A DNA stretch of 64,000 bases, taken from Squalus acanthias (Eukaryota). The position numbers were made by a program, and so were the translations under genes. The stretch is from positions 22,942,001 through 23,006,000 of the forward strand of contig CM059432.1 in assembly GCA_030390025.1 (NCBI GenBank), given 5' to 3'. How positions within the stretch are numbered: the first letter of the stretch is position 1; each line of letters starts with the position of its first letter. Positions 15 through 64,000 of the stretch are shown here, in pieces. The notes beneath the pieces are model-generated. The model did no database searches and was not told the DNA's origin. It saw only the letters and a list, made by a program, of their open reading frames with translations.

Positions 15-3000
15 ATGGCGGACACGAACGCAGTTTCCGTGAAACTGCTGGAGTTTTGGGAAAACCAGCCCGAAGCCTGGTTTCTCCAAGCCGAATCCCG
101 CTTCCGGCTGCAACACATCACCACAGATGGGACGCAGTACGACTACCTCGTCACATCACTCGGTAGCTCCACATTTACGAAGGTCTGGACAACGCTGCAG
201 AACCCACCAGAGGAAGGCAAGTATGCACATCTTAAGGAAGCGCTCCTTAAAAAATTTACGGCCTCGGCATACCAGCGAAACTGCCACCTCCTCGACCTTC
301 CAGGCCTCGGTAATACCTCACCGTCAGACCTCCTCTCCCACATGCTCTCCCTCACCGACGAGAGCCCACCCGGATCCCTCTTCCGCACGCTGTTCATCCG
401 CCAGCTACCTCTCAGCATCCGCCCAGCGATCGTGGCGTCCGGCCTCATGAACCTGGAAGCCCTGGCCGATGAGGCCGACAAGCTGCTGTCCGCTCACTCC
501 AGCCGCGACGTCACTCCGGACCTGGCAGCCAATGCCTGGGCGCGCCCCTCACCGGCCACCACGCGGCCACAAGGACCAGCCACCAGGCCCACGGGGCCTT
601 CGCGCCCCACTAACCCGGGCCACTGTTACTACCACGCACGGTTCGGCGCCAGGGCACAACGGTGCACACCTCCCTGCTCTTTCAAGTCCGCCCCCGTACC
701 AGCCCCCGTGATCGCCGTGGGCCACGCGGGCTCCCTGCTGTACATCACGGATGACAAAACCAGCCGCCGGTTCCTGTGCGACACTGGAGCTCAGCACAGC
801 ATCATCCCGGCCTCCTCCCTCGACATCCAAAAGGGCGAATGAGGACCGGCGCTGGCTGCTGCTAACGGCTCGGAAATCCGGACGTACGGCACCCGCACAG
901 TCACTCTCGACCTCGCTGGTCGCCACTACCGATGGGAGTTCATCACTGCCAAGGTGCTCTCCCCTCTCATCGGCGGAGATTTCCTGTGCGCCCACGGCCT
1001 ACTGGTAGACATCCCTCAACACCGCCTCGTGGACATGAACACCATGTCCCCCATCCTGGGCGCCATGGCCCCCCGTCAACCCGCCGACATGGCGTCACAG
1101 TGCCACGCCCGGGCCACGGATGACTACTCGGCACTCCTGGCCGAATTCTCGGCCCTTACCAATCCGACCTTCTCCACGGAGGCCGCCAAACACGGGGTGG
1201 AACACTTCATCCCCACCACAGGCCCCCCAGTGTACGCCCACGCCCGCAGGCTGGACCCGGCCAAACTGGAGATCGCACGGACCGAGTTTGCCACCATGGA
1301 ACAGCTCGGCATCATCCGCTGCTCCAACAGTCCCTGGGCCTCCCCACTCCACATCGCCCCCAAACCAGGCGGGGGTTGGCACCCCTGCGGGGATTACCGC
1401 CGCCTCAACGACGCCACCACCCCTGATCGGTACCCCGTGCCGCACATTCAGGACTTCTCGGCTAGACTGGCCGGCCGCTCAGTCTTTTCCAAGGTCGACC
1501 TGGTGCGCGGCTACCACCAAGTCCCCGTCCACCCCGCGGACGTCCCCAAGACGGCCGTAATCACCCCCTTCGGCCTGTTCGAGTTCCTGCGGGAGCCCTT
1601 CGGCCTCAAAAACGCGGCCCAGGCATTCCAACGGCTCATGGACTCGGTCCTTCGGGACCTGAAGTTCCTGTTCGTCTACCTGGACGACATCCTGGTAGCC
1701 AGTTCCTCCAAGCAGGAACACCTCGAACACCTTTGCATCCTGTTCGGGCGACCATGGGCTCATCCTCAGCCCAGCCAAATGCCAGTTCGGCCTGGACAAG
1801 ATCGACTTCCTCGGCCACCACATCACCCATGCTGGGGCCATTCCCTTGCCCACCAAGGTGCAGGCCGTCCAACAATTTCCCCGCCCCACCACCATCAAAG
1901 GCCTCCAGGAGTTCCTCGGGATGGCAAATTTCTACAACCGCATCATCCCCAAAGCGGCGTCCCTCATGAGGCCCCTGTATGAAGCCCTCCGGGGCAGGAG
2001 CGGCAAGATGGCGGTCGAATGGACGGCAGACGCGTCCGCCGCCTTCGACTCCACCAAGACCGCGCTCGCCAACGCCACCCTGCTCGCGCACCCACGGCCC
2101 AATGCCAGGGTAGCGCTCACCACGGATGCCTCCGACCACACGGTCGGCGCCATGTATGAGCAGTGGGTCGACGGTACCTGGCAACCACTTGCCTTCTTCA
2201 GCCGACAACTACGCCCCCCGGAGGTCAAGTACAGCACCTTCAACAGCGAGCTCCTCGTGCTGTTCCTGGCGGTCCGCCATTTTCAGTTTTTGCTGGAGGG
2301 CCACCCCTTCACTGCGTTTGTCGACCACAAGCCCCTGACATTCGCAATGGCAAAGACAACCGACCCCTGGTCCGCCAGGCAGCAGCACCAGCTCGCGGCA
2401 GTGTCCGAGTTCACCACGGACATCCAACACGTCTCCGGCCGAGACAATGTGGTAGCCGACTGCCTCTCCCGCCCCGCCATCCATGCCGCACACCTGGCAG
2501 TCGACTACGCTCAACTCGCAGCAGACCAGATCACCGACCCTGATCTGCTCTCCGCACCTACCAACCAACCAGGGCTACGCCTGGCCGACGTCGCCTGTGG
2601 CCCGACCGCAGTCACGGTCAAGTGCAACATATCCCTATGTCAACCTCGGCCCGTCGTCCCAGCGTCCTGGCACCGCCGGGTATTCGAGATTCTCCACAAC
2701 CTCTCCCAACCCGGCGCCCTCGCATCCATCAAATTGGTAGCCAACCGCTTTGTCTGGCGCGGCCTTCGCAAGGATGTGCGTACTTGGGCCAACTCCTGCC
2801 TAGCCTGCCAACGGGCCAAGGTACAGCAACACATGAAAGCACCCCTCGAGGAGTTTACCGTCCCTTCGCGTAGATTCAACCACATCCACGTGGACATCGT
2901 CGGGCCCCTGCCGCCGTCGCAAGGCCACACGCACTTGCTGACCATCATTGACCGCACCACGCGCTGGCCCGAGGCAATTCCACTGACCTCTACCACCACC

Positions 3001-3818
3001 GCCGACATCGCCAGAGCCTTCGTCAGCACCTGGGTCGCACGGTTCAGCGTCCCCTCCGACATGACGTCGGACAGAGGTCCGCAATTTACCTCTGAACTCT
3101 GGACCGCCGTCGCACGCAATCTCGGGGTGACCATTCACCGCACCACAGCGTACCACCCCCAAGCCAACGGACTGTGTGAGCGGTTCCACAGATCCTTGAA
3201 GGCATCTCTTCGAGCCAGCCTCCAGGACGGCGCCTGGACCGACCGACTTCCGTGGGTCCTCCTCGGCTGCGCACCGCGGTTAAAGAAGACCTCCACGCAT
3301 CGGCAGCAGAGCTCGTGTACGGTCAGCCGCTGCGCGTACCCGGCGAGTTCCTGCCCACCGCCACGACACCCTGGTCAGCCGACCAGCAACGCCACGACTT
3401 CGCCTCACCGGCGCTGCAGTTCGCCCCGGTGCCCATTGCCCGACACGGCGAATCCACCTCACACGTCCCACTAAGCCTGCACCAGGCACGGTTCGTTTTC
3501 GTCCGGCACGACGCCCACCGCGGACCCCTTCAACCCCCATACGACGGGCCCTACAAGGTGCTACAGGCTGGGGACAAATTTTTCACCCTGCAAGTGGGCG
3601 ACAGGACCGAGAAAGTGTCGGTTGACCGACTCAAGCCAGCACACTCGGAGCCCGGTGAGCAGGTCCCTGTAGCTTGTCCACCGCCACGCAGCCGACCTGC
3701 CCTCAAGCCGGTTCACCCGGCTGCTCCACGCCCGGCCGTTCCACGTCCACCGGCATCCTACAAGAGCCACTCCGGCCGGCCCATCAGACCGCCGCACCGT
3801 CTCGTCCACACCTCCTAA
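15..3818 (+). pseudogene. Disrupted gag-pol polyprotein
   Basis: Gag CYYHARFGARAQRCTPPC; protease FLCDTGA; RT YLDD; RNase H LTTDAS; integrase CLAC, HVDIVG/SDRG/CERFH, PYDGPY. In-frame TGA at 840-842, frameshifts near 1750 and 3265. Confidence 0.93.
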
Positions 3819-18330: not shown

Positions 18331-19290
18331 TTTTCCTTTCTTATGGATGGCATAGCAGCAGCACCCTGTGATATTACATGCTACAGGATGGCAATCACAT
18401 TTCCCAGGTCCAACAAAGAGCTTCCCTTCAAAGTGCTACCTTCAACTGGAATTATCATTTAGTAAAACCAAATTGAAGATTATGAAGTGAGTGTATCAAC
18501 CATTATGTGCCTAAGTCCTACATTCTCCATCAATGTCCTCAAAGTGTAGAGTTGAAATGGCGAGTTTATTGAAGCAGCCTAGGTTAATGATAATAAAATT
18601 CAGTTAACTCACACTGTCTGGCTCAGTTTCCCTGCTGATATTGCCAGCAACTACCATTTAAAATATTCAAATAACCCATAGATATGAAGGTGTAAAAATT
18701 GATAATCATTTAATATTTATACATGTACTAATGGTGAGAATCCTGCTCCATATCAACAAAATGACTGTTTTTGGTAAAAGGAGTATTCATTTAAACAACA
18801 TTTACATTGTTTAATGCAATGTTAAATCTGAAACCATAGCAGACCTGTAAAAACAAAGGTTTCTTTAAACAGTTACATATATCAGGTTCAAACAGCAGTA
18901 ATACTGTGCTCCCCAGAGTGGTCTACAGTTCCCACACGGCCAGTTCACAATGTCACTCAGATCATCTGAATGGAGATAAGATGCTAGAGGGAGTGAATGC
19001 CATTCTTGTGCCGAGTTCATGAATGATGTCGGTAGAGGTCTTGGAACAGATTCCTGTCTGCCCTCTGTTGAAGAATCAGAAAATAAAGTACAAGTTACAA
19101 AAGCAAGGACATGCGGAAGAGAGAATTGTAGATATCTTTGCTTACACTTTTTGAATTAAATCTGTTTTGATTTAATTTCTAATTTAAGAGTTTCTGTCTT
19201 TTAAGGGAGGCATATATGAGAATGTGTGACACTACACTGTACACCGTATATGTTTTAAAACGATAACAAAATTAATTGGTTATTTTCAAG

Positions 19291-20187
19291 GGAGTCCCAA
19301 CTGAGGGGAGGTCAGAATCCAAACTTAAAAAGGCCTCCAATAAGCTAAGCAGCCTCAATCTCAACCAAACTAAAGACGGAAAGAGCTTAAATGCAGCTGG
19401 TGCAAATCATTCAGCAACCCGTGATATGGACAGCCCTGCTGATGTATCCTTATCTGCCAATCCAGATGAGGGACAGCTCAAGGCTACATCACCAAAGTCA
19501 TACCAAGGAGCTAAGGTTGAATTAAAAGAACTTCCTCCTAAGAAGCCAATAAAGTTGGCTCCATTAGAACTCTCTGAGGATGTCAAGAAAGCCCAACTTG
19601 AGAAGCTTAGAGACATTCAAATAGAGGCCAAGATAGCTGCAGAGAAACTGGCCACCACTGGAGCAATTAACATTGAACACCAGCCAAAAAAAGTGAGGAA
19701 TCGCAAGCAGCTGGAGAACTTGGAGAAGATAAGGCTGGCAGAAAAGACATTTCTAGACAACCAAAAAGCCCCAAAACATCTGCTGCAAGAAGCACCATTT
19801 CTCCCTGCCAAGATCTCGTACTCAAGCACCAACCGGAAATTTGAAGAACCAGCACTTCCAAGCAAACCCTTGGTTCCTAAGAGCACAAAAATAAATGCTA
19901 AATCTGAAATAGCACATGAGGCACAGAGTTATATTCCTAATGAAAATCCTGAATCCTCACTCGGCGCTGTAAGAGGGAGATTAAGGCTGAGGCACGGAAA
20001 AGGCTGTGATAATGGAACACGTGATAAGTCTAAGCCTTTAAAACCATTGCGATTAACCTTTAGTAATGGTAAGATCAATGAAGAACTTAACACTGCCAGC
20101 CAGCAGACAGAGAAAGAACTCTGTGAGGCAAGCAAGCTACTTAACAATGGAGCCAGGGGAAAATGTATAAGAAAAACTAGTGGATAG
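19291..20187 (+). CDS. Putative terminal coding exon of an unidentified host gene (K/E/S/P-rich, short predicted coiled coil)
   Basis: Stop-free frame of ~298 codons in AT-rich non-repeat DNA; acceptor-like TATTTTCAAG at 19281-19290; AATAAA at 20615; no TE motifs recognised. Confidence 0.65.
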   Translation, partial: GVPTEGRSESKLKKASNKLSSLNLNQTKDGKSLNAAGANHSATRDMDSPADVSLSANPDEGQLKATSPKSYQGAKVELKELPPKKPIKLAPLELSEDVKKAQLEKLRDIQIEAKIAAEKLATTGAINIEHQPKKVRNRKQLENLEKIRLAEKTFLDNQKAPKHLLQEAPFLPAKISYSSTNRKFEEPALPSKPLVPKSTKINAKSEIAHEAQSYIPNENPESSLGAVRGRLRLRHGKGCDNGTRDKSKPLKPLRLTFSNGKINEELNTASQQTEKELCEASKLLNNGARGKCIRKTSG

Positions 20188-22435: not shown

Positions 22436-23603
22436 ACAGTTCAATTGAAATAAAATTAGGAAGATTGTGATAATAGTTGGTTTTTTTTTTGGTCAGCTTG
22501 TATGTGTGGAAGCCTTAGGAGTCTCCAAATCAAATACTGTACTGAGAAATTCACATAAATAGAACTTCACATTGCCTGAAGTGTGCACTAATCCCATGGA
22601 CAGATCCCAACCTGGCCTGAAGAACCCAGGTGCACTTTGAAAACTATCAAGGCTTATGAACACCCAAATGTGCATGGAGTACTGCTGTAACAGAAAACCA
22701 ACCCCTAAAGCAAAGACCACATTTACCTACTGCCATTCCCAAGGAGGTTAGACTCTAGTTGATCATTACACAAGACACAAGCATGGGTTTAATCCTTTGC
22801 TAGATGGGTCTTCCACCCAGCAGGAAGATAAGCAGCACCACTCACCATGAAATGTGTGAATATCTCCCTACTATCCTCTGCCCACAGCATGGACATACAC
22901 CATACCCTAGTAAGCAAAGCACATTTAAACCCTTATCATATGAACAGTTGCAAAGGCAAACAAAACAGAGGTCCAAGGCAAGGATACTGAAACTATCTAA
23001 CACATTAGTAAAATCATGAGGTAAATTTTCAGCTTCATTGCTTGGACAGTAATCTGGCGGAATCCATTGCCCTTCCATTATAGAACCCACCCAATTTTCA
23101 TTCCATTAAAATCAATGGAATGAAAATCGCGGTGTTATATAACAGGCGAAGGAACCACTCTGCAGATTACTGCCCATGTGCTGAAGATGAAAATTTATCT
23201 CTACATGTTATACAGTGTATTGAGTTGCAATCAAGGGCCCGAATTTGCAGTTGTAATGACGGCAAAACTGTCAGCGCTCGCCGTCATTACTGTGCAAAAC
23301 TGACAGCAATTGCTGGCATCTGCACATGTGCAGTTAAACGCGGAAATCTGGATGTTGCTGTCAGTGATACCCTGCTCCTCTACAGGGTACACTGTTGCAG
23401 TTTTCACAGATGCAAGCAACACAGAATCAGTGATTTGACGTGAACTTCAACTTTTTATGCACCATTCTCGCTGTAAAAACCATTGAAAATGTTAAGCCAT
23501 GTTGACTGAAGGGTAACTGAGTTTTTAATGGCATACTAAGTCATAATTACTGCTGTGAGAAGTTGCACAACACCAGGTTATAGTCCAACAGCTTTATTTG
23601 AAA

Positions 23604-23640
23604 TCACAAGCTTTCGGAGCACTGCTCCTTCGTCAGGTGA
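23604..23640 (-). ncRNA. Minimal hammerhead ribozyme motif (left arm)
   Basis: Minus strand TCAC-CTGACGA-A-GGAGC-agt-GCTCC-GAA-AGCT-T-GTGA. Confidence 0.75.
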
Positions 23641-23837
23641 AGTGAAGAGATACATATAGGCACAGCATATATAGTCAGAGACCACTGCCAGATGATTACA
23701 GTTAATCTTTCCAACTGCCCTTTATCACGCCTCGGCAGAGAGATAATCACGGCAATCAAAGGTGTGGAAAGATTAACTGTAATCATCTGGCAGTGTTCTC
23801 TGACTATATATGCTGTGCCTATATGTATCTCTTCACT

Positions 23838-23874
23838 TCACCTGACGAAGGAGCAGCGCTCCGAAAGCTTGTGA
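23838..23874 (+). ncRNA. Minimal hammerhead ribozyme motif (right arm)
   Basis: TCAC-CTGACGA-A-GGAGC-agc-GCTCC-GAA-AGCT-T-GTGA: core CUGANGA/GAAA, 5-bp stem II, palindromic AGCU stem III. Confidence 0.78.
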
Positions 23875-25059
23875 TTTCAAATAAAGCTGTTGGACTATAA
23901 CCTGGTATTGTGCGACTTCTCACATTTGTCCACCCCAGTCCAACACCGGCATCTCCACATCATAATTACTGCTGAACAGCCTCTCTGTCCCTGAAAAACA
24001 AATTTTATAAATGTGCAGCATCATTCCCCCAGAATAGCATTTAAAAATATATTTTTTTTAACGTTTGTTTATGATATTTCAACTTCTACCTAATCCCATG
24101 TGTATGTCCCAATCTTAATTTTGCTTTCTGTAAAATGATTAAAAAGTGAATTATAATCCATGCTTTTTGCTTCCTGGTTTGCTGTCTGTGAGAATTCTTC
24201 AATCTGATTGGCTGATCAGCCTGCTTGATGACTTCACTGTTGCTGGACACCACAGATCCCCTATAGATGGTGCGAGAATAACAACAACAACAGCAACAGC
24301 AACAACTTGTATAGGGGAGATCTTTGTGGGCAGCTTTTTTCGAGGTCAGCGACGACGCCGTCCCTTCGCCACTGACCGCAAAATCCAAGCCATTATATAT
24401 TTTTAAAAACCAATATTGGAGTAAATTTTACAATTAAGCATTCTTGACACAGAACTTAGTACAACAGGTGCCCATTTGTGGATTTTGGGTGTGGAAGTCT
24501 TTTCACCCTATTTGACAGCATGGCTTTCTGTCCACTCATTTTAATTATAAAATTTGCCCCATGGAGACAGTGCTGAGAATTCAGAGATGGGCAACAAAGC
24601 TGATTCCACAGTATTGATTCTCAAAATCCTTTCCCTGTTGAGATACCATGCACACCACCAATGTGCATTGGAATATAGCGGGCCCACTGCTCGCAGCCTG
24701 AGAGATACCCCGTCACAAGTAAAGATGTATAACTGGGTTATGACAAACAATAAGAAAGCATAATCTATTCCTAGTCAAAAAGAAAACAAAGACTCAAGGG
24801 CAATGTTCCCTTTAACCTGTGCAGGCCGCTCAATGGCGTTATAATGGGAAAAAACTGTGCACTTGTGGTAATTTGAATGGGCCGCGCAGCTCCTTAAAGG
24901 GGCTACGCACCCAAAAAAAATGTACAGGAATGTTGCTCAAGGGACAATTTTGTGAGGCTTCCCATTGCCAGCAAGGCCTCAAACACAGCCAGCAAGGAAT
25001 GCAAAATCACAGGCTGCACGATTTCCTGCCCTTGCCTCCTGAGCAACTAACCTATGTTC

Positions 25060-27865: not shown

Positions 27866-30220
27866 GTTACAATTTTGTCTTGTGCCCAAACCGGGCAGCA
27901 TGTCGGCAGAGCAATTGTTCTGCCTGCCGCTCCGTGCCAACCTGAGGTTTGAGCAGAAGAAAAGAAACAGAATGACGTGTAAAATGCTTAGGTGGCGAAC
28001 AGGAAGTAGTGAAGTGGCAGAAGTGATATTAGCAGAAGAGAATAGGAGACAGAATATGAGAATTCTAAGAAATAAAAGACATATATGAGGCACAGGGACC
28101 GTGTGAATAGCTAAAGGGGCGGTGGGGGGGGGGCGGGGGCGGTGGGGGAGGGTGCGCAGGGGATAGGTAGTAGAAAGAAAAGCATGAAACACTTTCAAAG
28201 CAGAGTAGGATTCAGTGGCCCAGGAGTCTGGTTTAATGAACAGTTTGATACCAAGGGTGTAGACCGCGACATTCCAACCCTTACTCATATTCCAGACTCT
28301 CGCTCTTGCAGTTAAGAACTACTTCATTGAATTATTTCCTTGTATATAATTGCCAGTCATCTACTTATCTTCCATAGCAAAATAAAGCTCCCCCTCCTCT
28401 CAGCGGGAAGCGATTAACCATGCGACTGTGTGGTTCGACTGTTTGCTCTTATCTTACTGAATGTTTGTTAGAGAGGAGTTAAAATTACAAAAACGACCTC
28501 TCCTCCATTGTGCTGTTCACAGTTTTTAACATCACTAAGGTTGCCAAAGCAGCAAATCGACCTTGAGACACATTAGTCCTCTGCAGAGAATGACACAGAG
28601 AGAAAAATAGCTGCCACTATCTGAGGAAAGAATTGTATTATATCAGTTTCTCATCATCAGTCTTGCATTAAACTGAAAATAATCGTTCATGTCATGCAGT
28701 CAGCCCCTTATTTATAGGCAGAAATGACAGCTCTTTAGATGAAACTGCAAAATAATAATCTTAGGAAAAAATCTGTGTGTAATATTGCCATCCTTTATTT
28801 TTCTTCTATTGAAAATGTATTGTTTTTTAAGAAAGCTGTATGGGAGCTTTGGAAAGGAAGATACAGCTCTGACCTGAAACATGAACTCTGCTTCTCTCTC
28901 CACAGATGTTGCCTGACCTGCTGAGTATTTTCAGCATTTCCTGTTTATATTTCTGAAAGGAAGATACGTGTGAATTGGTCTTTTCCTATTTATATTTTTC
29001 CCCTTCGTCTTCCTCCAATTTTCCCCCTTTGTCTTCTGAAGGCGCCAACTCATATTGGGGTACAGTTCCAGATGCCAGGTCGCCCAAGTGGCCATCCATC
29101 ATGTGTAAGTCCACACACTGAATCAGTGGGCTATATGACCATTCGGGGCATTACAGGTGAGCTGGAGTCTGGTCTCAATCTGCTGCCCACAAACACACAT
29201 TCTGGAGCAGTCACTGGACACCGTTTGGGAGTGAGAACTATTACATAGAATTACAGCACAGAAACAGGCCATTCAGCCTAACAAGTCTATGTTGGTGTTT
29301 ATGCTCCGCACAAGCCTCCTCCCACCTTACTTCATCTTACCCAAGCAACATATCAACTCTGGCGGATTTTTACCCCCTCCCTGTAAAAGAAGCACTGAGC
29401 CAAACTGCAGCACCCCTGCTGCCATCCTGATTATACGTGCATGGTGATAATGTGCCCAATTGCAGTGATGAGTGCTTTGCTCATTGTCTATGATTTTGCA
29501 TTAGAATAAAAATGATCCAACAATAAATAAACAATGTGAGAAAATTTATCTCTCCCTTCCCCATAACTCCTTCATAGCTTTTTATACTCATCCATACAGA
29601 TATGATGGTCTCCTAGTATGGTCCACATATTGGAACAATTGGCTTGGATTTTCTAGTGCCCATTGGAAAAATTTCAGGGTTGGAGTCATAGGGCTCGAAT
29701 TTCATCGGGCCGTTGAGGCGGGATTGGAGGCGTGTGGGTGGTTAAAATTGCAAAAACTGGCGGGCGGGCCCAACCCTGCCTCCATCCCGCCTCCAAGCAA
29801 TTTTCATTAAATCGTGTCTACTGGTCCCGTCTCCGTCCCGCCTCCAAGAGGCGGGATAGGCCGTTAAGGCCCTTAACAAGCACCAAATTGCCTCTATAAT
29901 GCCATTTTGATAGGCCTTTGTGATTTTAACCCTTTTCCCACGTGAAGCACGCCTGTTCTGAAACACGACGGTGAAACCTGGCGGTAGCACAATTGGATTG
30001 CTGACTATCAGCTGCAGCTCAACCATTAAATAGGAGATTTGATCAGCCATCATTTGCAGGTGGCAGGACTTTGCTGTCTCAGGTCTGGGGGATCTTTTAG
30101 AAGGCATAACCACAGCTGTGGAAGTTTGGAGCCTGACACCCATCTCCAATGTGACCTCCTGGGAAACCCCTCTCGCCACCTTGACTGAGCGCTTCCTCAA
30201 CTGAGGCATATACCAGAAGC

Positions 30221-31479
30221 ATGGGAGCCATTTATTTCCTTCCCTTCTGGACCTCAGATGAGGACGAAGACCAGCCGCAGCACCAGCAGAACCATGAACA
30301 ACAGCAGCACCAACAGCAGCACCAAAAGCAGCAGCACCAACAGGAGCGCCAAGCTGCTGCTCACCCACCTGAAGCTGCACAGGCCAGAAGGGGCCAGCGC
30401 ATGGAAGCCCGTCGGCGCAGGAGATACCCCCCAAACAGGGTCTACAGACATAGGGTCAGCTACCTCAACATGTCTGAGCAGCAGTGCCAAAGGCGGCTCC
30501 GACTTTCGCGAGAGGTAGTGGTGACATCTACGCAATGCTGCAACAAGACCTGGAGCCCAGAGGACCAGGTAGACAACCCTTACCAGTGGCCATCAAAGTC
30601 ACCACCGCACTCAACTTTTTTGCCTCAGGCTCATTCCAGGGATCAGCAGCAGACATCAGCGGCATCTCCCAGGCGGCCGCACACACTTGCATCACGCAGG
30701 TAACCGATGCCCTCTTTGCCATCGCACACAATCACATCCATTTCACCAAGGATCAAGCAAGTGTCACGGCGCGATGGGTTGGATTAGCTAATCTGGCAGG
30801 TTTTCCAAGGGTGCAGGGCATCGTTGACTGCATACATGTGGCCCTTAAGGCACCCCATCGCAATCCAGGTATTTTTGTCAACCGCAAGGGCTTCCACTCC
30901 CTCAATGTTCAGCTGGTGTGTGACCACAAGAAGGAAATTTTGCATGTTTGTGCCAAGTACCCTGGCAGTTGCCATGACTCCTTCATACTGCGCCAGTCTA
31001 GTGTGCCTCCGCTATTCAGTCCGCCAGACCAACTTAATGGATGGCTACTTGGAGACAAGGGCTATCCCCTGAAGACCTGGCTAATGACGCCATTGAGGAG
31101 CCCATCCAATGAAGCTGAGGAGAGCTACAACTCCAGCCACATGTCCACCAGAGCCATAATCGAGCAAACCATTGGTTTGCTAAAGATGCGCTTCAGATGC
31201 CTGGATAGATCAGGTGGAGCCCTGCAGTACTCAGCAGCCAGGGTCTCCAGAATCATTGTGCTTTGCTGTGCACTTCACAACATGGCACAGCGTCGTGGCT
31301 TGCAGATTCCTGAGGACCAAGTGGCTCGTCACATATCATCCTCAGATGAGGAGGAGGAGGAGGAGGAGGAGATCGAAAACGAACATCTTGCAGAGGCCCA
31401 TCAACCAGCGGCAGCAGTACGCGAGAACATTGCTGCCCGGGATGCAAGGAACGCACTCATCTTGGCCAGATTTGCTTAG
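30221..31479 (+). pseudogene. Harbinger (HARBI1-like) DDE transposase with one frameshift near 30520
   Basis: [72 protein letters not shown]-rich N-terminus in the other frame. Confidence 0.93.
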
Positions 31480-37500: not shown

Positions 37501-37724
37501 TAACCCGTTTTTAAAATGACCTGTGTGTGTGTGTGTGTGTGTTCATAGGTTTGATGCTTGCCAGTGCAGGCAATGGCACAGTTTTCCACTTTGGGCACCC
37601 AGTTGTCATGACAAGTGAGAGGCAGAACATAACACTCTCTGCTCTGCCACTTACAATATGCCCTCAAGCCCCCTACTGCATCAGGATAACATTGCTATTT
37701 CCAAACCAGCTTTCTTTTGTGGCC

Positions 37725-38140
37725 TATCTAATGCTCCAATTATGTGCCAGGTATTGGTGTCAGAGGGCATGGCCTCTCACCCTGTGTCTATCTAATGCCC
37801 CACATAAATGTCAGGTCTTGCGTTGGAGGGTGTCTTCTTCCATACTGTATCTAATGCCCCAATTAATGTCAAGTCTTGTGTTGGAAGGTGTCTTCTTCCA
37901 CATTGTCTCTATCTAATGCCCCATCTAAATGCCAGGTCTTGTGTTGGAGGATGTATTTTCCACACTGTCTCTATCTAATGCCCCAATTAATGTCAGGTCT
38001 TGCATTGGAGGGTATGTTCTTTCACGCTGTGCCTATCTAATACCCCACCTAAATGATAGGTCTTGCGTTGAAGGGTCTGTTCTTTCACGCTGTGCCTATC
38101 TAATACCCCAAGTAAATGCCAGGTCTTGCATTGGAGGCTG
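37725..38140. repeat. Minisatellite, ~7 units of ~59-64 bp
   Basis: Each unit starts TATCTAAT(G/A)C and contains an AGGTCTTG..TTGGAGG-like motif. Confidence 0.92.
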
Positions 38141-38721
38141 TGGTCATTCATGCTGTGTCAGAGCGGCTGCAGTGTAACTATGTGATATCATAGTGGCATC
38201 TGACACTTGGCACTTGGGACGATGCTTGAAGTCCCACACTATTTAAAGATAATAAATAATATGGGTAATTTTAACTCGTGCGCAGAGGACTTTTCAAATC
38301 ATTGGAAATCTCACTGGGGGACAGAAGCCAGCGAGCAGTGCACTGTTTGCATTTCAGAGTGCTGCCTTCCCACTCTCAAGGTGAATAGTACACGATATGG
38401 CTACACACTCACATCACTGTGAATTTCTATACTGTGGTGCTATTTGTTTTTCCAAAATTAACCCTAATCTTCAGTCTGCTTGACAATGGCACATCTATTA
38501 TCAGCAAGAAAGGCATTTTATCAACGCTCCGGTATCCAGCCACAATGAGATACTACAGACCACACAGCTGTGACTGCCCACCAATTTCTTGTTTTCCCAT
38601 CCTTCTTTTCCACCTTGTAGAGGAATGCCACTGGCTTGTCTTGGTGCCTTGCATTGCCGGTAGCACGGAATAGGTAACCTAGCCCTGGGCCTCAGCCACT
38701 AGTGCTATGAAACCAATCATT

Positions 38722-40168
38722 CTAACCCCGCTATTCAAGAAAAGGGGGAGAGAGAAAACAGGGAACTACAGGCCAGTTAGCCTAACATCAGTCATTGGGA
38801 AAATGCTGGAATACATTATTAAGGAAGTGGTAACAGGGCACTTAGAAAATCATAATATGATTAGGCAGAGTCAACGTGGTTTTGTGAAAGGAAAATCATG
38901 TTTAACAAATTTATTAGAGTTTTTGAGGATATAACTAGCAGGGTAGATAAAGGGGAACCAGTGGATGTAGTATATTTGGATTTCCAAAAGGTATTCGATA
39001 AGGTGCCACATAAAAGGTTGTTACGTAGCGCAAGATAAGGGCTCATGGGGTTGGGGGTAATATAGTAGCATGGATAAAGGATTGGTTAACGGACAGAAAA
39101 CAGAGAGTAGGGATAAACTGGTCATTTTCCCATTGGCAGGCTGGGGTGCCGCAAGGATCAGTGCTTAGGCCTCAGCTATTTACAATCTATATTCATGACT
39201 TAGATGAAGGGACTGCGTGCAATGCATCCAAGTTTGCTGACGATACAAAGCTAGGTGGGAAAGTAAGATGTGAGGAGAACACACAGAGCCTGCAAAGGGA
39301 TATAGACAGGTTAAGTGATTGGGCCAATAGGATGGCAGATGGAGTATAATGTGGGGAAATGTGAGGTTATTCACTTTGGCAGGAAGAATAGAAAAACAGA
39401 ATATTTTTTAAATAGTGAGAAACTATTAAATGTTGGTGTTCAGAGAAATTTAGGTGTCCTCGTACAGGAAACACAGAAAGTTAGCATGCAAGTACAGCAA
39501 GCAATTAGGAAGGCAAATGGCATGTTGGCCTTTATTACAAGGGGGTTGGAGTACAAGAGTAAGGAAGTCTTACTACAATTGTACAGGGCTTTGGTGAGAC
39601 CACACCTGGAGTTCTGTGCACAGTTTTGGTCTCCTTATCTGAGAAAGGACATACATGCCTTAGAGGCGGTGCAACAAAGGTTCACTAGATTGATCCCTGG
39701 GATGAGAGGGTTGTCCTATGAGGAGAGATTGAGTAGATTGGGCCTATACTCTCTGGAGTTTAGAAGAATGAGAGGTGATCCCATTGAAAAATTTAAGATT
39801 CTGAGGAGGATTGACAGGGTAGATGCTGAGAGGTTGTTTCACCTGGCTGGAGAGTCTAGAATTAGGGGGCATATTCTCAGGATAAGAGGTCGGCCTTTTA
39901 AGACTGAGATGAGGAGGAATTATTTCACTCAGAGTGTTGAGAATCCTTGGAATTCTCTATTCAAAAGGGCTGTGGATGCTGAGTCGTTGAGTACATTCAG
40001 GGCTGAGATAGATAGCTTTTTGGACTCTAGGTGAACCAAGGGATATGGGGATCGGGCAGGAAAGTGGAGTTGAGGTCGAAGGTCAGCCATGATCTTATTG
40101 AATGGTGGAGCAGGCTCGAAGGGCCATATGGTCGACTCCTGCTCCTAATTCTTATGTTCTTATGTTCA
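38722..40168 (+). mobile_element. 5'-truncated CR1 LINE (RT region, frameshifted)
   Basis: GNYRPVSLTS, PQGSVL, KFADDTKL; (TTCTTATG)n tail. Confidence 0.95.
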
Positions 40169-42869: not shown

Positions 42870-45800
42870 TCATAGAAACATAGAAGATAGGAGCAGGAGT
42901 AGGCCATTCGGCCCCTTGAGCCTGCTCCACCATTCGATGAGATCATGGCTGATCATCTAAACTCAGTACCCTGTACCTGCCTTCTCCCCATATCCCTTGA
43001 TACCTTTAGCTTTAAGAAATATATCTAACTCATCCTTGAATATATTTAATGGCCCGAAAATTAGACCTAATACGCGAGAGTACGCACTGTGTACTCTCGC
43101 GTTTTAGGTCTCCAATTGCCGGTTTCCTGCATGCACTGCGCATGCGCGGGAAACCGGCACTTCGTGAATTCAAAAGGGGGCGGTTCCTAAGTGAACCGCG
43201 TGCGCGCTACAGGCTGCGCGCACGCAGTGCACTTAGTTATTTTTGCAGCTTTGAACACGCAGGTAAGCATGGAAGATTTTACACATGAAGAAAGGAGGCG
43301 TAAGACCCTCTTTTAACAAGGTAAGTAGTTAATTAAGTATTATTTAAAAAAATTTTTCAACAGGTTTATCTTTTTTAGAGACTTTAAAGAAAGGTAAGTT
43401 TATTTTTATAACTTTTAAAAAGATTTTAAATTTTTCAAAAATTTTATTTTTTGTTTAAAGTGGTTAATTTATTTAACTATACTTATTTTATTAATGTGAT
43501 GGTTTTTTTTTTAATTTAATTGAGGTTTAGCTGTTCTTTTGGGGGTGTGTAGGATTCATAGCTTTGACAGCTCTTGCTGTGAAAACTATGAATGAAAGAT
43601 GGTGTGCTGCCATTGGCTCTAACTGAATCACGTGATCCCAGAGCTCGCACGAACTAATTGCGCCTCTGGGATACGCACACACTGCACAGCTGCATGTGGG
43701 ACTGGCCTTGAAACTAAAGTTCGTGTGGGCCCGGAGGAAAAAGGTAGGCGTGGAGTGAGATATCGCGGGGAAGCCTTACCCCCGCAGGAACACTCACTGT
43801 TTAATTTCTGGGCCAATGACTTCGCCTCAACTACCTTCTGTGGTAGAGAATTCCACAGGTTCACCACTCTCTGGGTGAAGAAATTCTTCCTCATTTCTGT
43901 CCTAAATGGTTTACCCGTTATCCATAGATTATGACCCCTGGTTCTGGACTCTCCGACCATCGGGAACATTCTTCCTGCATCTAGTTTGTCCAGACCTGTC
44001 AGAATTTTATATGTTTCGATGAGATCCCCTCTCATTCTTCTATACTCCAGTGAGTATAAGCCCAATCGACCCAATCTCTCCTCATATGTCATTTCTGCCA
44101 TCCCAGGTATCAGCCTTGTGAATCTTCGCTGAACCCCTTCTATGGCAAGAACATCCTTCCTCAGATAAGGCGACCAAAACTGCACACAGTACTCAAGGTG
44201 TGATCTCACCAAGGCCCTGTACAACTGCAGCAGGACATCCCTGTTCCTATACTCAAACCCTTTCGCTATGAAGGCCAACATACCATTTGCCTTCTTCACC
44301 GCCTGCTGCACCTGCATGCTTACTTTCAGCGACTGGTGCACAAGGACACCCAGGTCTCGTTGCACTTCCCCTTCTCCAAATCTATTGCCATTCAGATAAT
44401 AGTCTGCCTTTCTGTTTTTGACACCAAAGTGGATAACCTCGCACTTATCCACATTATATTGCATCTGCCACGCTTCTGCCCACTCACCCAACCTGTCCAG
44501 ATCATCCTGGAGTTTCTCGGTATCCTCCTCGCAGCACACACTCCCACCCAGCTTTGTGTCATCTGCAAACTTGGAGATATTACATTTAATTCCCTTATCT
44601 AGATCATTAATGTATACTGTGAATAGCTGGGGTCCAAGGACCGATCCCTGCGGTACCCCACTAGTCACTGCTTGCCACTCGGAAAAAGACCCATTAATTC
44701 CTACTCTCTGCTTTCTGTCCGCCAACCAGTTCTCTATCCAAGTCAATACCTTGCCCCCAATCCCATGTGCCTTAACTTTACACGCAAATCTCTTATGCGG
44801 GACCTTATCGAAAGCCTTTTGAAAGTCCAAATACACCACATCTACTGGTTAGTCAAGCACGATTTACCTTTTGTAAATCCATGTTCACTTTGTCCGATCC
44901 TGTCACTGTTTTTCAAGTGCTCAGCTATTACATCCTTTATAATGGACTCTAGCATTTTCCACACTACCGATGTCAGGCTTACCGGTCTGTAATTCCCCGC
45001 TTTCTCTCTACCACCCTTTTTGAATAGTGGGGTAACATTAGCTACCCTCCAATCCATGGGTACAGTTCCAGATTCCATCGAATGTTGGAAGATGATCAGC
45101 AATGCATCTACTATTTCTAGGGCCACTTCCTTAAGTACCCTAGGATGTAGATTATCAGGCCCTGGGGATTTATCGGCCTTCAATACCGTCAAATTCCCTA
45201 ACACCATTTCCCTGCAAATACTGATTTCTTCCAGTTCCTCCCTTTCATCAGACCATATGTTCTCCAACATCTCTGGGAGGTTATTTGTGTCCTCCTTTGT
45301 GAAGACAGAACCAAAATATGCATTTAATTGGGCTGCCATTTCTTTGTTCCCATTATAACTTCCCCCGCTTCTGACTGCAAGGGACCTACACTTGATTTCA
45401 CTAATCTTTTTCTCTTCACATATCTATAAAAGCTCTTACAGTCAGTTTTTATGTTCCCAGCAAGCTTACTTTCATATTCTATTTGCCCCTTCTTAATTAA
45501 TCCCTTTGTCCTCCTTTGTTCAATCCTAAACTGCTCCCAATCCTCAGGGCTACCGCTTTTTCTGGCCAATTTATATGCCCTTTCCTTGGATCTTATGCTA
45601 TCCCTAATTTCCCTTGTTAGCCACGGTTGAGTCACCCTTTTTGTTTTATTCTTATGCCACACTGGGATGAACAAATTCTGTAGTTCATCCATGCAGTCTT
45701 TGAATGTTTGCCATTGACTATCCACCGTCAACCCCTTGAGTGACATTCCCCAATCAATCCTACCCAATTCGCGCCTCATACCATCGTAGGTTCCTTTATT

Positions 45801-47055
45801 TAAATTCAGGACCCTAGTCTCTGATTCAACTACTTCACTCTCCATCCTAATGAAGAATTCTATCATATTATGATCACTCTGACCCAAGGGGCCTCGTACA
45901 ACAAGATTGCTAATTAATCCTTTCTCGTTACATAATACCCAGTCTAAGATGGCCTGATCTCTGGTTGGTTCCTCGACATATTGTTCCAGAAAACTATCTC
46001 GTAAACATTCTAGGAATTCCTCCTCCACAGTATTTTTACTAATTTGGTTAGCCCAATCTATATGTAAATTAAAGTCACCCATGATGACTGCTGTGCCCTT
46101 ACTGCATGCTTCTCTAATTTCCCTTTTAATGCCGTCCCCAACCTCCGTATTACTGTTTGGAGGTCTATATACCACTCCCACTAACGTTTTCTGCCCCTTG
46201 TTATTTCTCAGTTCTACCCATACAGATTCCGCATCATCAGAGCTAATATCCTTCCTTTCAATTGTGTTAATCCCCTCTTTAACCAGCAATGCTACCCCAC
46301 CTCCCTTTCTTTTTTGCCTATCTTTCCTAAATATTGAATAACCCTGGATGTTGAGTTCCCAGCCTTGGCCACCCTGGAGCCATGTGTCTGTAATCCCAAT
46401 CAAATCGTATTCATTTACCTCTATTTGCGCAGCTAATTCATCCACCTTGTTCCGAATGCTCCTTGCATTAAGACACAAAGCCTTCAGGCTTGTTTTTTTA
46501 ACGCTCTCAGACCTATATGAATTATTATTTACTGTGACCATGTTTGATTTAAACCGTTGAGTTCTTTGCATTCTACTTTTGTTTTTCTCCTTCCTGTCTT
46601 TAGCTTTTATCCTTGTTTCCCTTTCCTCTGTCTCCCTGCTCAGATTCCCAACCCCCTGCCACTTTAGTTTAAACCCTCCCCAACAGCACTAGCAAACACT
46701 CCCCCTAGGACATCGGTCCCGGCCCTGCCCAGGTGCAGACCATCCCGTTTATACTGGTCCCACCTCCCCCAGAACCGGTTCCAGTATCCAAGGAATTTGA
46801 ATCCCTCCCCCTTGCACCATTCCTCTAGCCACGTATTCATTTGAAATATCCTCCTATTTCTACTCTGACCAGCACGTGGCACTGGTAGCAATCCTGAGAT
46901 TACTACCTTTGAGGTCCTCTTTTTTAATTTACCTCCTAACTCCCTATATTCTGCTTTTAGGACCTCATCCCGTTTTTTACCTATATCGTTGATGCCTATG
47001 TGCACCACGACAACTGGCTGTTCGCCCTCCCCCTCCAAAATGTTCTGTAGCCGAG
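42870..47055 (-). mobile_element. Long CR1 LINE: ORF1 esterase remnant plus ORF2 (APE endonuclease-RT), disrupted
   Basis: ORF1 VVVHIGINDIG...DGLHL (SGNH-type); ORF2 NARSIRNK, GGGVALLV, MGDFN, SDHN, NYRPVSLTS, PQGSVLGP, FADDTKL; (CATAGAAA)n tail; frameshift at ~45340, deletion at ~44845, MITE insertion. Confidence 0.96.
43051..43814. mobile_element. Harbinger-type MITE inserted in the CR1
   Basis: TIRs GGCCCGAAAATTA / TAATTTCTGGGCC; AAT duplicated; CR1 sequence resumes on both sides. Confidence 0.9.
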
Positions 47056-58180: not shown

Positions 58181-58504
58181 TTGAATTGGCACTTAACATG
58201 TGAGCCGGACATTGTCTTGGGAGATTCTCCCACTCGGCCACCATACCTTTGGTGGAAAATCAGCGGAAACCCCGTTTACGTGTCTCTCCCGGGTTTCTGC
58301 CAATGCGTAATTAGATCAGAAAAACTTAAGTTTTCATCAGTTCAACTGATTGCCAGCTATGGGGAGTTCCACAGCTCAGCCTGTGGCGGAGCAGTGAACG
58401 ACTGACCGCAACTTCAAGATTTTCGCCTTTATCTGGCATGCGCTAAATCCTGAAGTTGCGGTCAGTTTCAGAGGGGTAATGATGGCGAACGCTAAATCCG
58501 GGCC

Positions 58505-59392: not shown

Positions 59393-59794
59393 TAGAATAA
59401 CACCACCATTAGTGATAATCAACACAGTGAAACAATTGTTCCTTAAGCTTTTTTACAGAGCCCTACTCAATGCAAAGACCAGTTTTTGTTTGCCAGGTTC
59501 GAACATACACAAGTGGGGTTAAGTTCAAAGTTGAAGCGTTAGGCCTAAGGCAGTGTCATTTAACATCAATCAAAGTCAAAGCCTGCTGCTACAGTACTCC
59601 AGCTGTTTTTTTGGAGTGCAGAAAGACCTAGAAAAAATTACGTTGGTAATCACCTAGTCCAAGATTTAAGCCCTAATGCATGCTCCAAAAACCTTAGTTT
59701 AGCAAGTAATAGTTAATTTATAAGGAAATGATAAGGAAGTAGGACTTAGTAATTTTGGAAAAAGGTACTTCAGGGTGCCCTAACTGAAGTTTTT

Positions 59795-60180
59795 AAAAAT
59801 GAGAAGTCGCACAACACCAGGTTATAGTCCAACAGATTTATTTAATTTTACAAGCTATCGAAGCAGTTCGCTCCTTCGTCAGGTAAGTTAACAGCGTAAT
59901 TACTGTGGAAGAGCCGAAGTTTTCGTCAGTTTCAATGATTTATAAGATTTCACTGAATGCCGCCTTTGTGGGGGGGGGAGGGGGGGTGGCGGGGGCACAG
60001 CGAAGCCAGTTCGGAGGCGTAATTGACAGACTGCAACTTCGTCACTGCTAACTTACCTGACGAAAGAGCGAACTGCTTCGAAAGCTTGTAAAATTAAATA
60101 AATCTGTTGGACTATAACCTGATGTTGTGCGACTTCTCATTTTTGTCCACCCCAGTCCAACGCCGGCATCTCCACATCAT
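59795..60180. mobile_element. PLE fold-back insertion with captured 154-bp insert, inside an old CR1 fragment (~59690-60290)
   Basis: ~95-bp inverted arms homologous to 23556-23963; same 3' extension; TGAAGTTTT repeated at both flanks. Confidence 0.85.
60053..60091 (+). ncRNA. Minimal hammerhead ribozyme motif (mirror copy 59848-59886 -, with GAAA>GATA)
   Basis: TTAC-CTGACGA-A-AGAGC-gaact-GCTTC-GAA-AGCT-T-GTAA. Confidence 0.7.
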
Positions 60181-60301
60181 GAAGTTTTCAAGATTGTGAA
60201 GGGAAATGACAAAGCCAATCCAGACAATTTTTTCACTATGGCGAAGGGTTCTAATACCAGGAACACAAGTTAAGAAGCTACAGTATCACCTTGCTTCTTA
60301 T

Positions 60302-60850
60302 TAGGAACATAGGAACAGGAGTAGGCCATTCACACTTCAAGCCTTTTCCACCATTGGCTGATCAGTACCTCAACTCCATTTGGTCATACCCCTTGATATC
60401 CTTACTTAGCGAAAATCTATCAATCTCAGTCTTGAAAATTTGAATTCACCCAGCATTCATAGCCTTTTGAGGAGAGAGGTCCATATTTTCACTACCCTTT
60501 ATGCAAAGAAATGCTTCCTGATTTCACTCCTAAATGGACTAGCTCTAATTTTAAGATTATGCCCTCTTGTTCGTGAAATAGTTTTTCTGTATCTACCTTA
60601 TCAACTCCCTTTATCAATTTAAATACCTTGATTAGATCACCCCTCGATCTTCTAAACTCAATGGAATACAAGCCAGTTTCTGTAACCTGTCCTCATAATT
60701 TAAGGCCAATATATATTTGCTGAGGTACAGTGTCCAAATCTGAACACAGTATTCCAGATGGGGTCTGACCAAGGCTCTACAACTGAAGCATCACTTCCTC
60801 ACTATTGAATTCCTATCCCCTTGAGATAAAGATCAACATTCCATTAACTT
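60302..60850 (-). mobile_element. CR1 3' end
   Basis: (TAGGAACA)n tail; similar to the reverse complement of 7055-7458. Confidence 0.8.
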
Positions 60851-61339
60851 TCCATACATCCTTTCCGGTATGTCAGAATCTCCAATTCATAATCACAATA
60901 GCACATGATCACTTAGTCACAGCTTATATTCCATATCCCATGTGTGTATGATGTTACCAGAGAAGGCCACTGACGTAGGCAGTACATACAGAGTAGGCAG
61001 TTGGGTTTCTGGAGAGAGTGGGACCCACAGGGATCGCATATCAGGGGTTATTCTGTGCTTTCCATGCTCCCAATGTGAAGCTGCACCTGCAGGGAACAGA
61101 GCTCAGTGAATTGAGGGGTAGTGTTGCAGTCTCCGATCTGTGGTCTCTGCGAGCTTGGCTTCCCCATGAAATTGCGGAATGGCCCTCTCAGGAATTTGCA
61201 CACCTGCCCCCATGATTCCGGTGGATGGGAATTTGCCGGGTCAGACATCCAAATTCCTGATATGCATTACTGACGCTTGAGGCTCTGCCCAGGAGTGTCC
61301 ATTCATGACATTTACCTTTACATTCCTACTTCTGCATAA

Positions 61340-62098
61340 TATGAACGGTGTCGCAGATAAAGGTATGACGGTGTACTCCCAGAGTATTAAAAGTGACCGG
61401 AACTTCGGGATTTGGCGCAAGGGCATGCAGAAATCCCGAAGTTGCAGTCTGTCAATTATGCCTCCGAACTGGCTTCGCTGTGCCCCCGCCACCCCCCCTC
61501 CCCCCCCCCCACAAAGGCGGCATTCAGTGAAATCTTATAAATCATTGAAACTGACGAAAACTTCGGCTCTTCCACAGTAATTACGCTGTTAAATTCCCCA
61601 CTAAAAGTTAGACCCAAAGGGATTAGGTGTCATTGGGGTTTTAAAAGCGTATTGACCACTAAACAAATGTTAAGGGCCTGGAAAACTAATTTTAATTTTT
61701 TGCAGTGTGAAATTTGTCCATTTTAATAAAAAATAAAAATTTTAAGAAACGTTTTTTAAAAATTACATTTTTTGAAGTTTGTGCATTTTTATTTTAGTTT
61801 TTCCTTTTCACCATATGAGAACCCCAATCTTTCTTTTGCTCTATCTAACTATTTTACAAAGGTAGAATTTTAAGGACTTACCCATTTCCTTGTTCGCTGT
61901 CAGTGAGAATTTTGCCTGTTGATTTGCTGCTTCGACAGCCTGTTGATGTCACAGCACTTCACTCAAGGGGATCCCCATTAAGTTCCGTTGAATTGAATTG
62001 AAGGTCAGAAAACCCGAAGTTCTCGACACGGGGATTGCGAGATCCCTGTGCGGAGTGTTCTTCAGGGTCAGCAGCTGGCTCCTGTGCTTCGCTGGGCC
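61340..62098. mobile_element. Harbinger-type MITE (related diverged piece ~58250-58505)
   Basis: Internal similarity to 23235-24390; hairpin AACTTCGGGATTT...AAATCCCGAAGTT; ends GCTGGGCC. Confidence 0.6.
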
Positions 62099-63169
62099 AA
62101 AGACACTATCTGAAGAACAGATCCATGGGTAGGAGATGCAGTGTGTAAAGCTTTGCTGTTGACAGACTTTTGAAATTGACACAGAACATAGTCTTGCAGT
62201 TGCATCATCTCTTGTGTTCCTGACATAAAGGTAACAGTTTAGCTTAATACCAGCTCTTAAAAAATTCTTCTGGTCCTGAACTATGGTGGTGGGGGTTGGG
62301 GGGGAGTGGGGAGTGGTCATTTAGTTGATAGCACTCTTGTCTTGACTTCTAAGAGACGCACAAGAGCAATACAGGTTGACACGTTCTCTGATTTTCCCAT
62401 TCCCATAGCAGAAGCACTTTAACTCCACTCAGCAAGTGTTTCCTATGGTCCACTGTGGACACCTGGCTGTATCCTGCAACTCAGAAGCACATTAACACAG
62501 TGACCGTAGACTAAAATTTTAGTCCATTTATCTTGGCCTCAGTCTAAGCTTACCTCACCAAATCACTGCTACCAAACTTACCTTGACTTCTCTCTCATTC
62601 TTTTCAACTTTATTGGTGTCTGCACTGTGGGCCATCGCATTGGTTTCAAGATTATAGGCGATCTACTTCTTGAATCAGAAATCAAACTATTAGCTCTACC
62701 TTAATGGCTTAGTTGGGAAATCCACTGCCCAATATGGTACTAAGTAGTACAGACCAGACAGACCCCAGGTTTAATCCCTGGTTTATGTTGAGTTGGCTGA
62801 TCTCAGGCAAGGCAGCTGTAAGTTTACTACAGTTGCTACAAATAGTATGCTAACATTCTCTGGTCCCACAGAATGAAGTCAAGTGAAGTACTACAGGACA
62901 ACTGGCACCCACAACACCAAGGGGGATAAATTGGTTAGTGTCCATTTTCGGGTGTGAACCAGGTGCCACACAAATTGCACGTGCCAGAAGAGGCCAGCCC
63001 AAGGACCACCTGAAATTGGTCTTTGGGCCTGATCTTAATATTTCAGGCTATCGTGCCACTAGAGGCAGCTAGGCTGCAAACACACCAGTGAAACTTGCAG
63101 AGAGCAGGCTAGATGCCTGCGCCACTCAGAGCAGCCCCAATTCCCAGAGGGGTCCTTTTCTTAAAATTT

Positions 63170-64000
63170 GGTTATGGGATGTGGGCAGTCGCTGGCAATG
63201 CCAGCATTTATTGCCCATTCCTAATTGCCCTTGAGAAGGTGGTGGTGAGCCGCCTTCTTGAACCGCTGCAGTCTGTGTGGTGAAGGTACTCCCACAACGC
63301 TGTTAGGTAGGAAGTTCCAGGATTTTGACCCAGCGACGATGAAGGATCATCAATATACTTCTAAGTCAGGATAGTGTGTGACTTGGAGGGGAACTTGGAG
63401 GTGGTGGTGTTCCCATGTGCCTGCTGCCCTTTTCCTTCTAGGTGGAAGAGGTCACGGGTTTGAGAGGTGCTGCCGAAGAAGCCTTGGCGAGTTGTTGCAG
63501 GGCACCTTGTAGATGGTACACACTGCAGCCACGGTATGCCGGTGGTGGAGGAAGTGAATGTTTAAGGTGGTGGATGGGGTGCCAATCAAGCGGGCTGCTT
63601 TGTCCTGGATGGTGTCGAGCTTCTTGAGTGTTGTTGGAGCTGCACTCATCCAGGCAAATGGAGAGTATTCCATCACACTCCTGACTTGTGCCTTGTATAT
63701 GGTGGAAAGGCTTTGGGGAGTCAGGAGGTGAGATACTCGCCGCAGAATACCTAGCCTCTGACCTGCTCTTGTTGCCACAGTATTTATGTGGCTGGTCCAG
63801 TTAAGTTTCTGGTCAATGGTGACCCCCAGGATGTTGATAGTGGGGGATTCGGTGATGGTAATACCGTTGAATGTCAAGGGGCGGTTGTTAGACTCTCTCT
63901 TGTTGAAGATAGTCATTGCCTGGCCCTTGTGTGGTGTGAATGTTACCTGCCACTTATCAGCCCAAGCCGGAACATCGTCCAGGTTTTGTTGCATGCGGGC
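63170..64000 (-). mobile_element. 3' part of a CR1/L2-group LINE distinct from the main CR1 family; runs off the window
   Basis: ORF 63452-63994 WADKWQVTF...ILGVTIDQKLNWTSHI...YKAQVRSVMEY...IQDKAARLI. Confidence 0.9.

Follow-up and report, generated by a model that had tools for sequence, protein, structure and literature searches.

How a stretch of host DNA came to lie, inverted, between two mirror-image copies of a mobile element is the question raised by a short insertion in the window, by which we mean the whole 64,000-nt stretch of vertebrate DNA analysed here. The loop between the two arms of this unit is the reverse complement of a segment 1.4 kb away, apart from one transition and a G-run that is 2 nt shorter, and the match is recovered by blastn within the window with an E value of 2e-74. 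An earlier note on this DNA had described the copy, and its coordinates are right (Table 1). It had also read the locus as an inverted partial duplication of a Penelope-like element whose synthesis jumped onto neighbouring DNA and back, and this reading has held up against the empty site, the local identity and the pairing at one junction. What is demonstrated is an insertion with a target duplication, mirrored arms with a single tail, a local copy, and one paired and one blunt joint. We propose, with a probability of about two in three, that these are the outcome of a single recent retrotransposition of a Penelope-like element, of Poseidon type by its layout, that was completed with a locally templated patch.

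Table 1 Features of the insertion unit, the donor of its loop and the sister unit, in window coordinates
Feature	Position	Strand	Basis
Left target-site duplication copy, TGAAGTTTT	59785..59793	+	Single copy in empty-site contigs
Left arm, inverted 5'-truncated putative Penelope-like terminal repeat, without tail	59795..59890	-	Alignment, 93/96 identity to right arm
Minimal hammerhead motif, left arm, core damaged (GAAA to GATA at 59857)	59852..59882	-	Motif scan, one mismatch
Loop, 154 nt, inverted copy of 61437-61592; first 3 nt common to left arm	59888..60041	+	Alignment
Right arm, sense 5'-truncated putative Penelope-like terminal repeat	60042..60144	+	Alignment, very high summed contig depth
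Minimal hammerhead motif, right arm, core boxes intact	60057..60087	+	Motif scan
AC-rich 'tail', 35 nt, right arm only	60145..60179	+	Sequence comparison; tail as defined in the available parts of PMC8557442 and PMC11167929
Right target-site duplication copy, TGAAGTTTT	60180..60188	+	Empty-site contigs, sequence
Perfect 13-bp inverted repeat (61401-61413 / 61431-61443) with 17-nt loop	61401..61443		-16.7 kcal/mol, DNA parameters
Loop donor, 156 nt, within an older high-copy non-coding repeat (about 61380-62100)	61437..61592	+	Alignment, contig depth
9-nt site pairing with the antisense arm end, at donor's right end	61584..61592	+	Pairing scan
Sister head-to-head unit, other subfamily	23541..23976 (approximate, including 14-15-nt duplication)		Window comparison
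Sister arms, 160 nt each, with 51-nt loop, 38-nt tail and two intact hammerhead motifs	23554-23713 / 23765-23924		

The insertion itself is documented by its empty alleles. Four of the 21 public runs listed were compared with positions 59500-62200 at 90% likeness, at the level of contigs, from which rare variants are dropped and which cannot show absence or RNA ends. No RNA run was among those listed, a result that has no bearing on expression. Both same-species runs (X1 and X5, from two samples and two studies) contain a contig at single-copy depth that joins 59784 directly to 60180, and comparison with the window shows 395 nt added between these positions. In both of the runs from relatives, 59762 and 60180 are linked in one contig by 17 letters, where an empty site predicts 22. 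Because the site is empty in all four runs, two from the same species and two from relatives, the 395-nt unit is a young insertion and TGAAGTTTT has been duplicated; the earlier note had seen the unit flanked by this sequence, which stands on both sides of it and once in the empty allele. The duplication may extend to 12 nt (59785-59796) if position 59794 is a later C>T change. The target is AT-rich. It lies in the decayed 3' end of a LINE ORF2 on the + strand (59730-59793 and 60180-60300), which is single-copy at 90% likeness, matches a LINE ORF2 end weakly (E 0.012) and is presumably of CR1 type; a second LINE 3' end, on the minus strand, follows at 60300-60860.

The two arms are inverted relative to one another and identical at 93 of 96 positions (59795-59890 against 60049-60144; three differences), with subfamily variants common to both. 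Only one of them carries a tail, of 35 nt in the focal unit and of 38 nt in a sister unit elsewhere in the window, and the ends of the element are 115 and 113 nt away from stem II of the hammerhead. Penelope-like elements are described, in the available text of PMC8557442, as carrying a 30-40-nt tail on one end and as often being adjoined by an inverted 5'-truncated copy, and the formation of such inverted units is still called undefined there. For PAc, a Poseidon element of Anolis, the accessible part of PMC11167929 reports that both target strands are cut and extended in vitro and that reverse transcription starts at two sites bounding the tail, mostly at 111-118 nt in a frame that starts at stem II. 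The tail lengths and element ends of the focal and sister units fit both these two start sites and the extension of two strands.

The focal unit thus shows an inverted 5'-truncated copy beside the 5' end, a one-sided tail of 30-40 nt and a target duplication with an empty site, and we regard the element as a probable Penelope-like (EN+) element, of Poseidon type by layout. The assignment is made by layout because there is no Rfam match, with 0 matches at the gathering score across the window, and no element reading frame within the unit. No GIY-YIG domain was found in the 17 open reading frames scanned of the 57 in the window with at least 120 aa, in which the matches were to LTR-type reverse transcriptase, RNase H and integrase, to an APE-bearing LINE and to a DDE transposase; a 22-nt pattern taken from the arm gave 0 matches in metagenome and viral contigs. 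The likeness to the units of PMC8557442 and to PAc (PMC11167929) extends to the inverted 5'-truncated copy, the 30-40-nt tail on one end, the minimal hammerhead, the AC-rich end about 115 nt from stem II and the AT-rich target. However, the focal unit is without a reading frame, and the portions of these two papers available to us report no locally templated spacer between the arms.

The unit had previously been described as flanked by hammerheads, and a motif is indeed present in each arm, but the two lie on opposite strands and each bears a damaging change. The exact minimal hammerhead motif occurs three times in the window against 0 times in 100 shuffles; a fourth occurrence has one mismatch. 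In the right motif, whose stem I pairs 60053-60056 with 60088-60091, a G>A change at 60065 breaks the conserved G10.1-C11.1 pair, which is listed as highly conserved in the minimal hammerheads of metazoan Penelope-like elements in the available part of PMC4209133. At the family level, the CUGANGA and GAAA boxes, the extra base at 9/10.1, the G10.1-C11.1 pair, the palindromic 15.2-16.2 and the short helix I are all found, whereas each focal copy lacks one of them. The two subfamilies differ in helix I by one compensatory pair (TTAC/GTAA and TCAC/GTGA). The motifs resemble those of PMC4209133, as far as that text is available, in their core boxes, the extra base before stem II, the palindromic helix III region and the short helix I; they differ in that both motifs of the focal unit are damaged. 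Motif pairs 100-700 bp apart on opposite strands have already been reported in the same source. As monomers the hammerheads fold no more stably than shuffled sequences (z -0.2 to -2.0), and self-cleavage is at most a prediction.

The joints between arms and loop differ in kind. The earlier note had seen imperfect microhomology at both, and this stands for the left joint, where the similarity is in register: the last 9 nt of the donor can pair with the antisense arm through seven Watson-Crick and two G.T pairs. Pairing over 9 nt that is as good is offered by 13 of 127,940 window positions, and 61584-61592 is alone in this on the top strand of 60180-64000; these statistics, like the others given for the junctions, were chosen after the data had been seen. 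At the right joint, ACTGC-AACTT and ACTGCTAACTT are out of register, with both copies present side by side, and this similarity was accordingly rejected as true microhomology; in-register homology is 0, i.e., the joint is blunt. The similarity beside it is reached by 90 of 20,000 random windows, again in a statistic selected after the fact, and is the sole such place in the 3.8-kb flank. The left end of the donor falls within the 3' arm of a perfect 13-bp hairpin, and such stems make up 0.2% of the window. At 60037-60070, the arm's own sequence and the arm end together with the first 5 nt of the donor make up a short inverted repeat (-7.5 kcal/mol). It is possible, though unproven, that a small snap-back took place at the blunt joint, the arm end folding upon itself and adding 4-5 nt that match the donor; to judge by one contig of another copy, the element itself does not seem to continue with the right-joint letters.

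We tentatively propose the following course of events. The endonuclease of the element would cut both target strands, and each target 3' end would then prime reverse transcription at one of the two start sites of the element, one at the tail end and the other 35 nt inside it. The result would be two short cDNAs, 138 and about 100 nt long and identical in sequence. Annealing between the two is impossible, since both carry sequence of identical sense. Instead, one of their ends could pair over 9 nt with 61584-61592, from where 156 nt would be copied, either by the reverse transcriptase of the element or by a polymerase of host repair, up to a stop inside the 13-bp hairpin at 61437; the new strand would finally be joined blunt to the other cDNA end. 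In an alternative path, the first cDNA may snap back on its own strand, once this is resected, and leave it through the same 9-nt pairing; this would yield an identical product and would also account for the inverted orientation of the loop. The copying direction, the enzyme and the type of template, whether DNA or a local transcript, would leave no mark that could be read from the product. Two private G>A changes in the right arm and one T>A change in the left arm are a mild argument against a plain fold-back origin of the left arm. When position 59794 is counted along with 60065, 60122 and 59857, three of the four private changes are C>T on the would-be cDNA strand of each arm, none of them at a CpG, which hints weakly that intermediates were deaminated while single-stranded. 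On this reading the unit is an integration by-product with no sign of function.

The main rival to a patch laid down during integration is a patch added afterwards, in two steps: a spacer-less head-to-head palindrome would have formed first, and a later break at its centre would have been repaired by copying nearby DNA. Head-to-head joints with little spacer do exist in the family, the four printed fillers of arm-to-arm joints in other copies measuring 1, 2, 4 and 9 nt among the 15 of 376 joints and 12 of 125 fillers displayed, in contigs too short to span long loops. The joints of the loop are ordinary repair joints, and the arms differ at 3 of 96 positions and the loop from its donor at 1 of 154, which would also fit a later patch, but the difference is not significant (Fisher P 0.16). 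Moreover, the empty site in both same-species samples leaves little time for two events, and no loop-less allele of the locus appears among the records listed. We therefore regard the two-step course as unlikely, though as the main competitor to a single locally patched integration.

A second point to be weighed is whether the segment 1.4 kb away was the template at all. The donor sits in a repeat that we take to be a MITE, although no terminal inverted repeats were found for it, and contig depths, summed over the donor, amount to 2,513-52,182 against 7-20 in the unique flank in the two same-species runs, a measure that is not a copy number. A distant copy of this high-copy repeat, or its RNA, could thus have served as the source, the neighbouring copy being coincidental, and the junction motifs may be common to members of the family. 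The single substitution also bears on the matter: the loop has CG where the donor has TG at 61460. One change in the donor or in the template allele is thus needed, and later CpG decay, another allele as template or a distant donor would each account for it. Nevertheless, the loop is a near-exact copy of DNA close to the site, the donor having been left intact and being in place in run X1, and the loop and donor form the most similar pair (96.9%, with ragged ends) of the 30 repeat pairs of at least 100 nt listed in a self-blast of the window, where the median is 76%; the best 15 of these pairs leave out the near-perfect sister arms, which were found separately. In the other copies of the repeat that were listed, which are long pieces only, 8-9 of 86-92 letters are different, and relatives of the host repeat within the window are 65-69% alike. 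One of them, at 58370-58468, is a 69% relative of the donor's hairpin region in opposite orientation, 1.3 kb left of the insertion, and was rejected as a template for being too diverged.

The expectation for a paralogue can be put in numbers: with Poisson statistics, one change or none in 154 nt has a probability of 0.007 at 4.6% divergence, 1e-5 at 9% and 0.13 at 2.3%. Of 609 letters of the orthologous flank, 28 and 30 are different in the two relatives. Contigs of both relatives run from the unique flank into both ends of the donor's host repeat, and the local copy is therefore probably older than the species split. In run X1 a contig of depth 8.4, i.e., at single-copy level, crosses 130 of the donor's 156 nt, while in run X5 the unique contig ends 20 nt into the donor. 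On this comparison the local copy appears to be the best-supported template for the loop, and a distant source seems distinctly improbable, more so than a patch added in a second step.

The earlier note had gone further and suggested a cassette of constant arms and variable spacers, a system that would repeatedly capture local sequence and present it in a hairpin or circular RNA. The window holds one clean case of local capture, and host DNA between pLTRs has been reported in Adineta vaga (PMC3846280, in the part available). If transcribed, the unit would fold as a long hairpin (-199.5 kcal/mol, z -15). Nonetheless, only one of the two units in the window has a local loop, and the sister unit does not bear out the cassette: its arms, 87% alike to the focal arms over 131 nt, differ from them in length and subfamily, and its 51-nt loop has no exact match longer than 10 nt within the window (E 2 or more) and hence no local source there. 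That loop may be no more than a continuation of the element on one side. The repeat into which the sister inserted is a distant relative (65%) of the donor's host. Further points against recurrent capture are the printed 1-9-nt fillers of other copies, the position of the hammerheads on opposite strands with both damaged, and the origin of the loop in a high-copy repeat, which would not make it a locus-specific guide. As a single transcript would hold one hammerhead, buried in the long hairpin, excision or circularisation of the loop by ribozyme action is not expected. A retrozyme-like cassette, with two hammerheads of the same sense that release the spacer between them, was rejected on the same two features of the motifs. 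A recurrent, expressed capture system is accordingly very improbable, and the loop looks like a one-off repair patch.

The least probable account is that an in-vitro template switch or a mis-join in library or assembly produced the loop or the whole unit, as the filled allele, known from the window itself, appears in 0 of the 28 contig records listed, with 90,906 further rows outside the listing, and inverted Penelope-like structures are known to trouble assemblies (PMC8557442, in its available text), but the target duplication is exact against a clean empty site, the tail is one-sided as in the sister, subfamily variants are common to both arms, and a CpG-type difference from the donor would be unexpected in an in-vitro copy of the same molecule.

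Perhaps the closest parallel to a locally patched integration comes from the L1 element. In the available portion of Zumalave et al., 10.1101/2024.08.27.596794, 22 templated insertions are given among some 3,600 solo insertions (about 0.6%); their templates are mostly shorter than 250 bp and mostly lie no more than 15 bp from the site. Mendez-Dorantes et al., PMC11702581, likewise in part, give 6 of 235 L1 insertions with local inversions or templated pieces, the figure of 235 being taken from a neighbouring sentence, and the legend of its Fig. S9 describes an L1 insertion with a local inversion, one homologous and one blunt joint. These L1 events share with the focal unit a target duplication and a short (<250 bp) copy of DNA near the site, and some of them also show twin priming, inverted orientation, or one homologous and one blunt joint. 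Despite this, the focal element is Penelope-like by its layout, its patch lies between two mirrored terminal-repeat copies, and it is a germline allele with its donor 1.4 kb away. As far as the available text goes, this distance, set beside L1 templates mostly within 15 bp, counts against the reading as a templated patch.

Two other systems can be compared, each through the part of the source available. The Adineta vaga elements Pen1 and Pen3a have captured host DNA between their pLTRs (PMC3846280) and, like the focal unit, display unrelated host sequence between terminal repeats, a target duplication and a verified empty site. Their spacers, however, are 0.9-1.5 kb or a whole gene, an NRPS gene lies between direct repeats and has moved to a new location, and no local donor is described in that part. 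Fold-back insertions at double-strand breaks in yeast (PMC11724301) likewise consist of an inverted copy of the flank with one microhomology-primed and one end-joined end, but are mostly 5-34 bp, lie beside the break and involve no retroelement. In Chlamydomonas, local duplications are tied to the LINE Dualen and not to Penelope elements (PMC9977147). Our literature search, whose coverage left most subscription papers outside, found no Penelope element with a locally templated loop.

The focal case is a tidy Penelope example of a repair outcome known from L1. The patched joint of a single retrotransposition would record an intermediate with two free cDNA ends, which fits the two-strand priming of PAc in vitro, and with a family as abundant as this one, a census of loops would be a cheap test of the model of priming at two ends. 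It is conceivable, though we consider it rather a long shot, that a sizeable share of Penelope integrations in this lineage are finished by the element's own reverse transcriptase copying 100-200 nt of flank, found through short homology just upstream of the hammerhead. If that were true, the loops would record, across the genome, the still undefined step by which inverted Penelope units arise, and would be a steady source of kilobase-range local duplications inside transcribable hairpins.

The remainder of the window contains further remnants of mobile elements. Remains of an LTR-type retrotransposon pol, with reverse transcriptase, RNase H and integrase in two frames, occupy 843-3474, and a frameshifted LINE with APE and reverse transcriptase lies on the - strand at 43628-46688, with a second LINE copy, 73% alike and in opposite orientation, at about 39320-40150. 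At 29742-31479, a 333-aa DDE_Tnp_4 transposase frame on the + strand has a 237-aa frame on the - strand beside it, an arrangement that we take to be the layout of Harbinger elements. A 303-aa open frame without a Pfam match is found at 19276-20187, and a degenerate tandem array with a period near 62 or 123 nt extends over 37724-38157.
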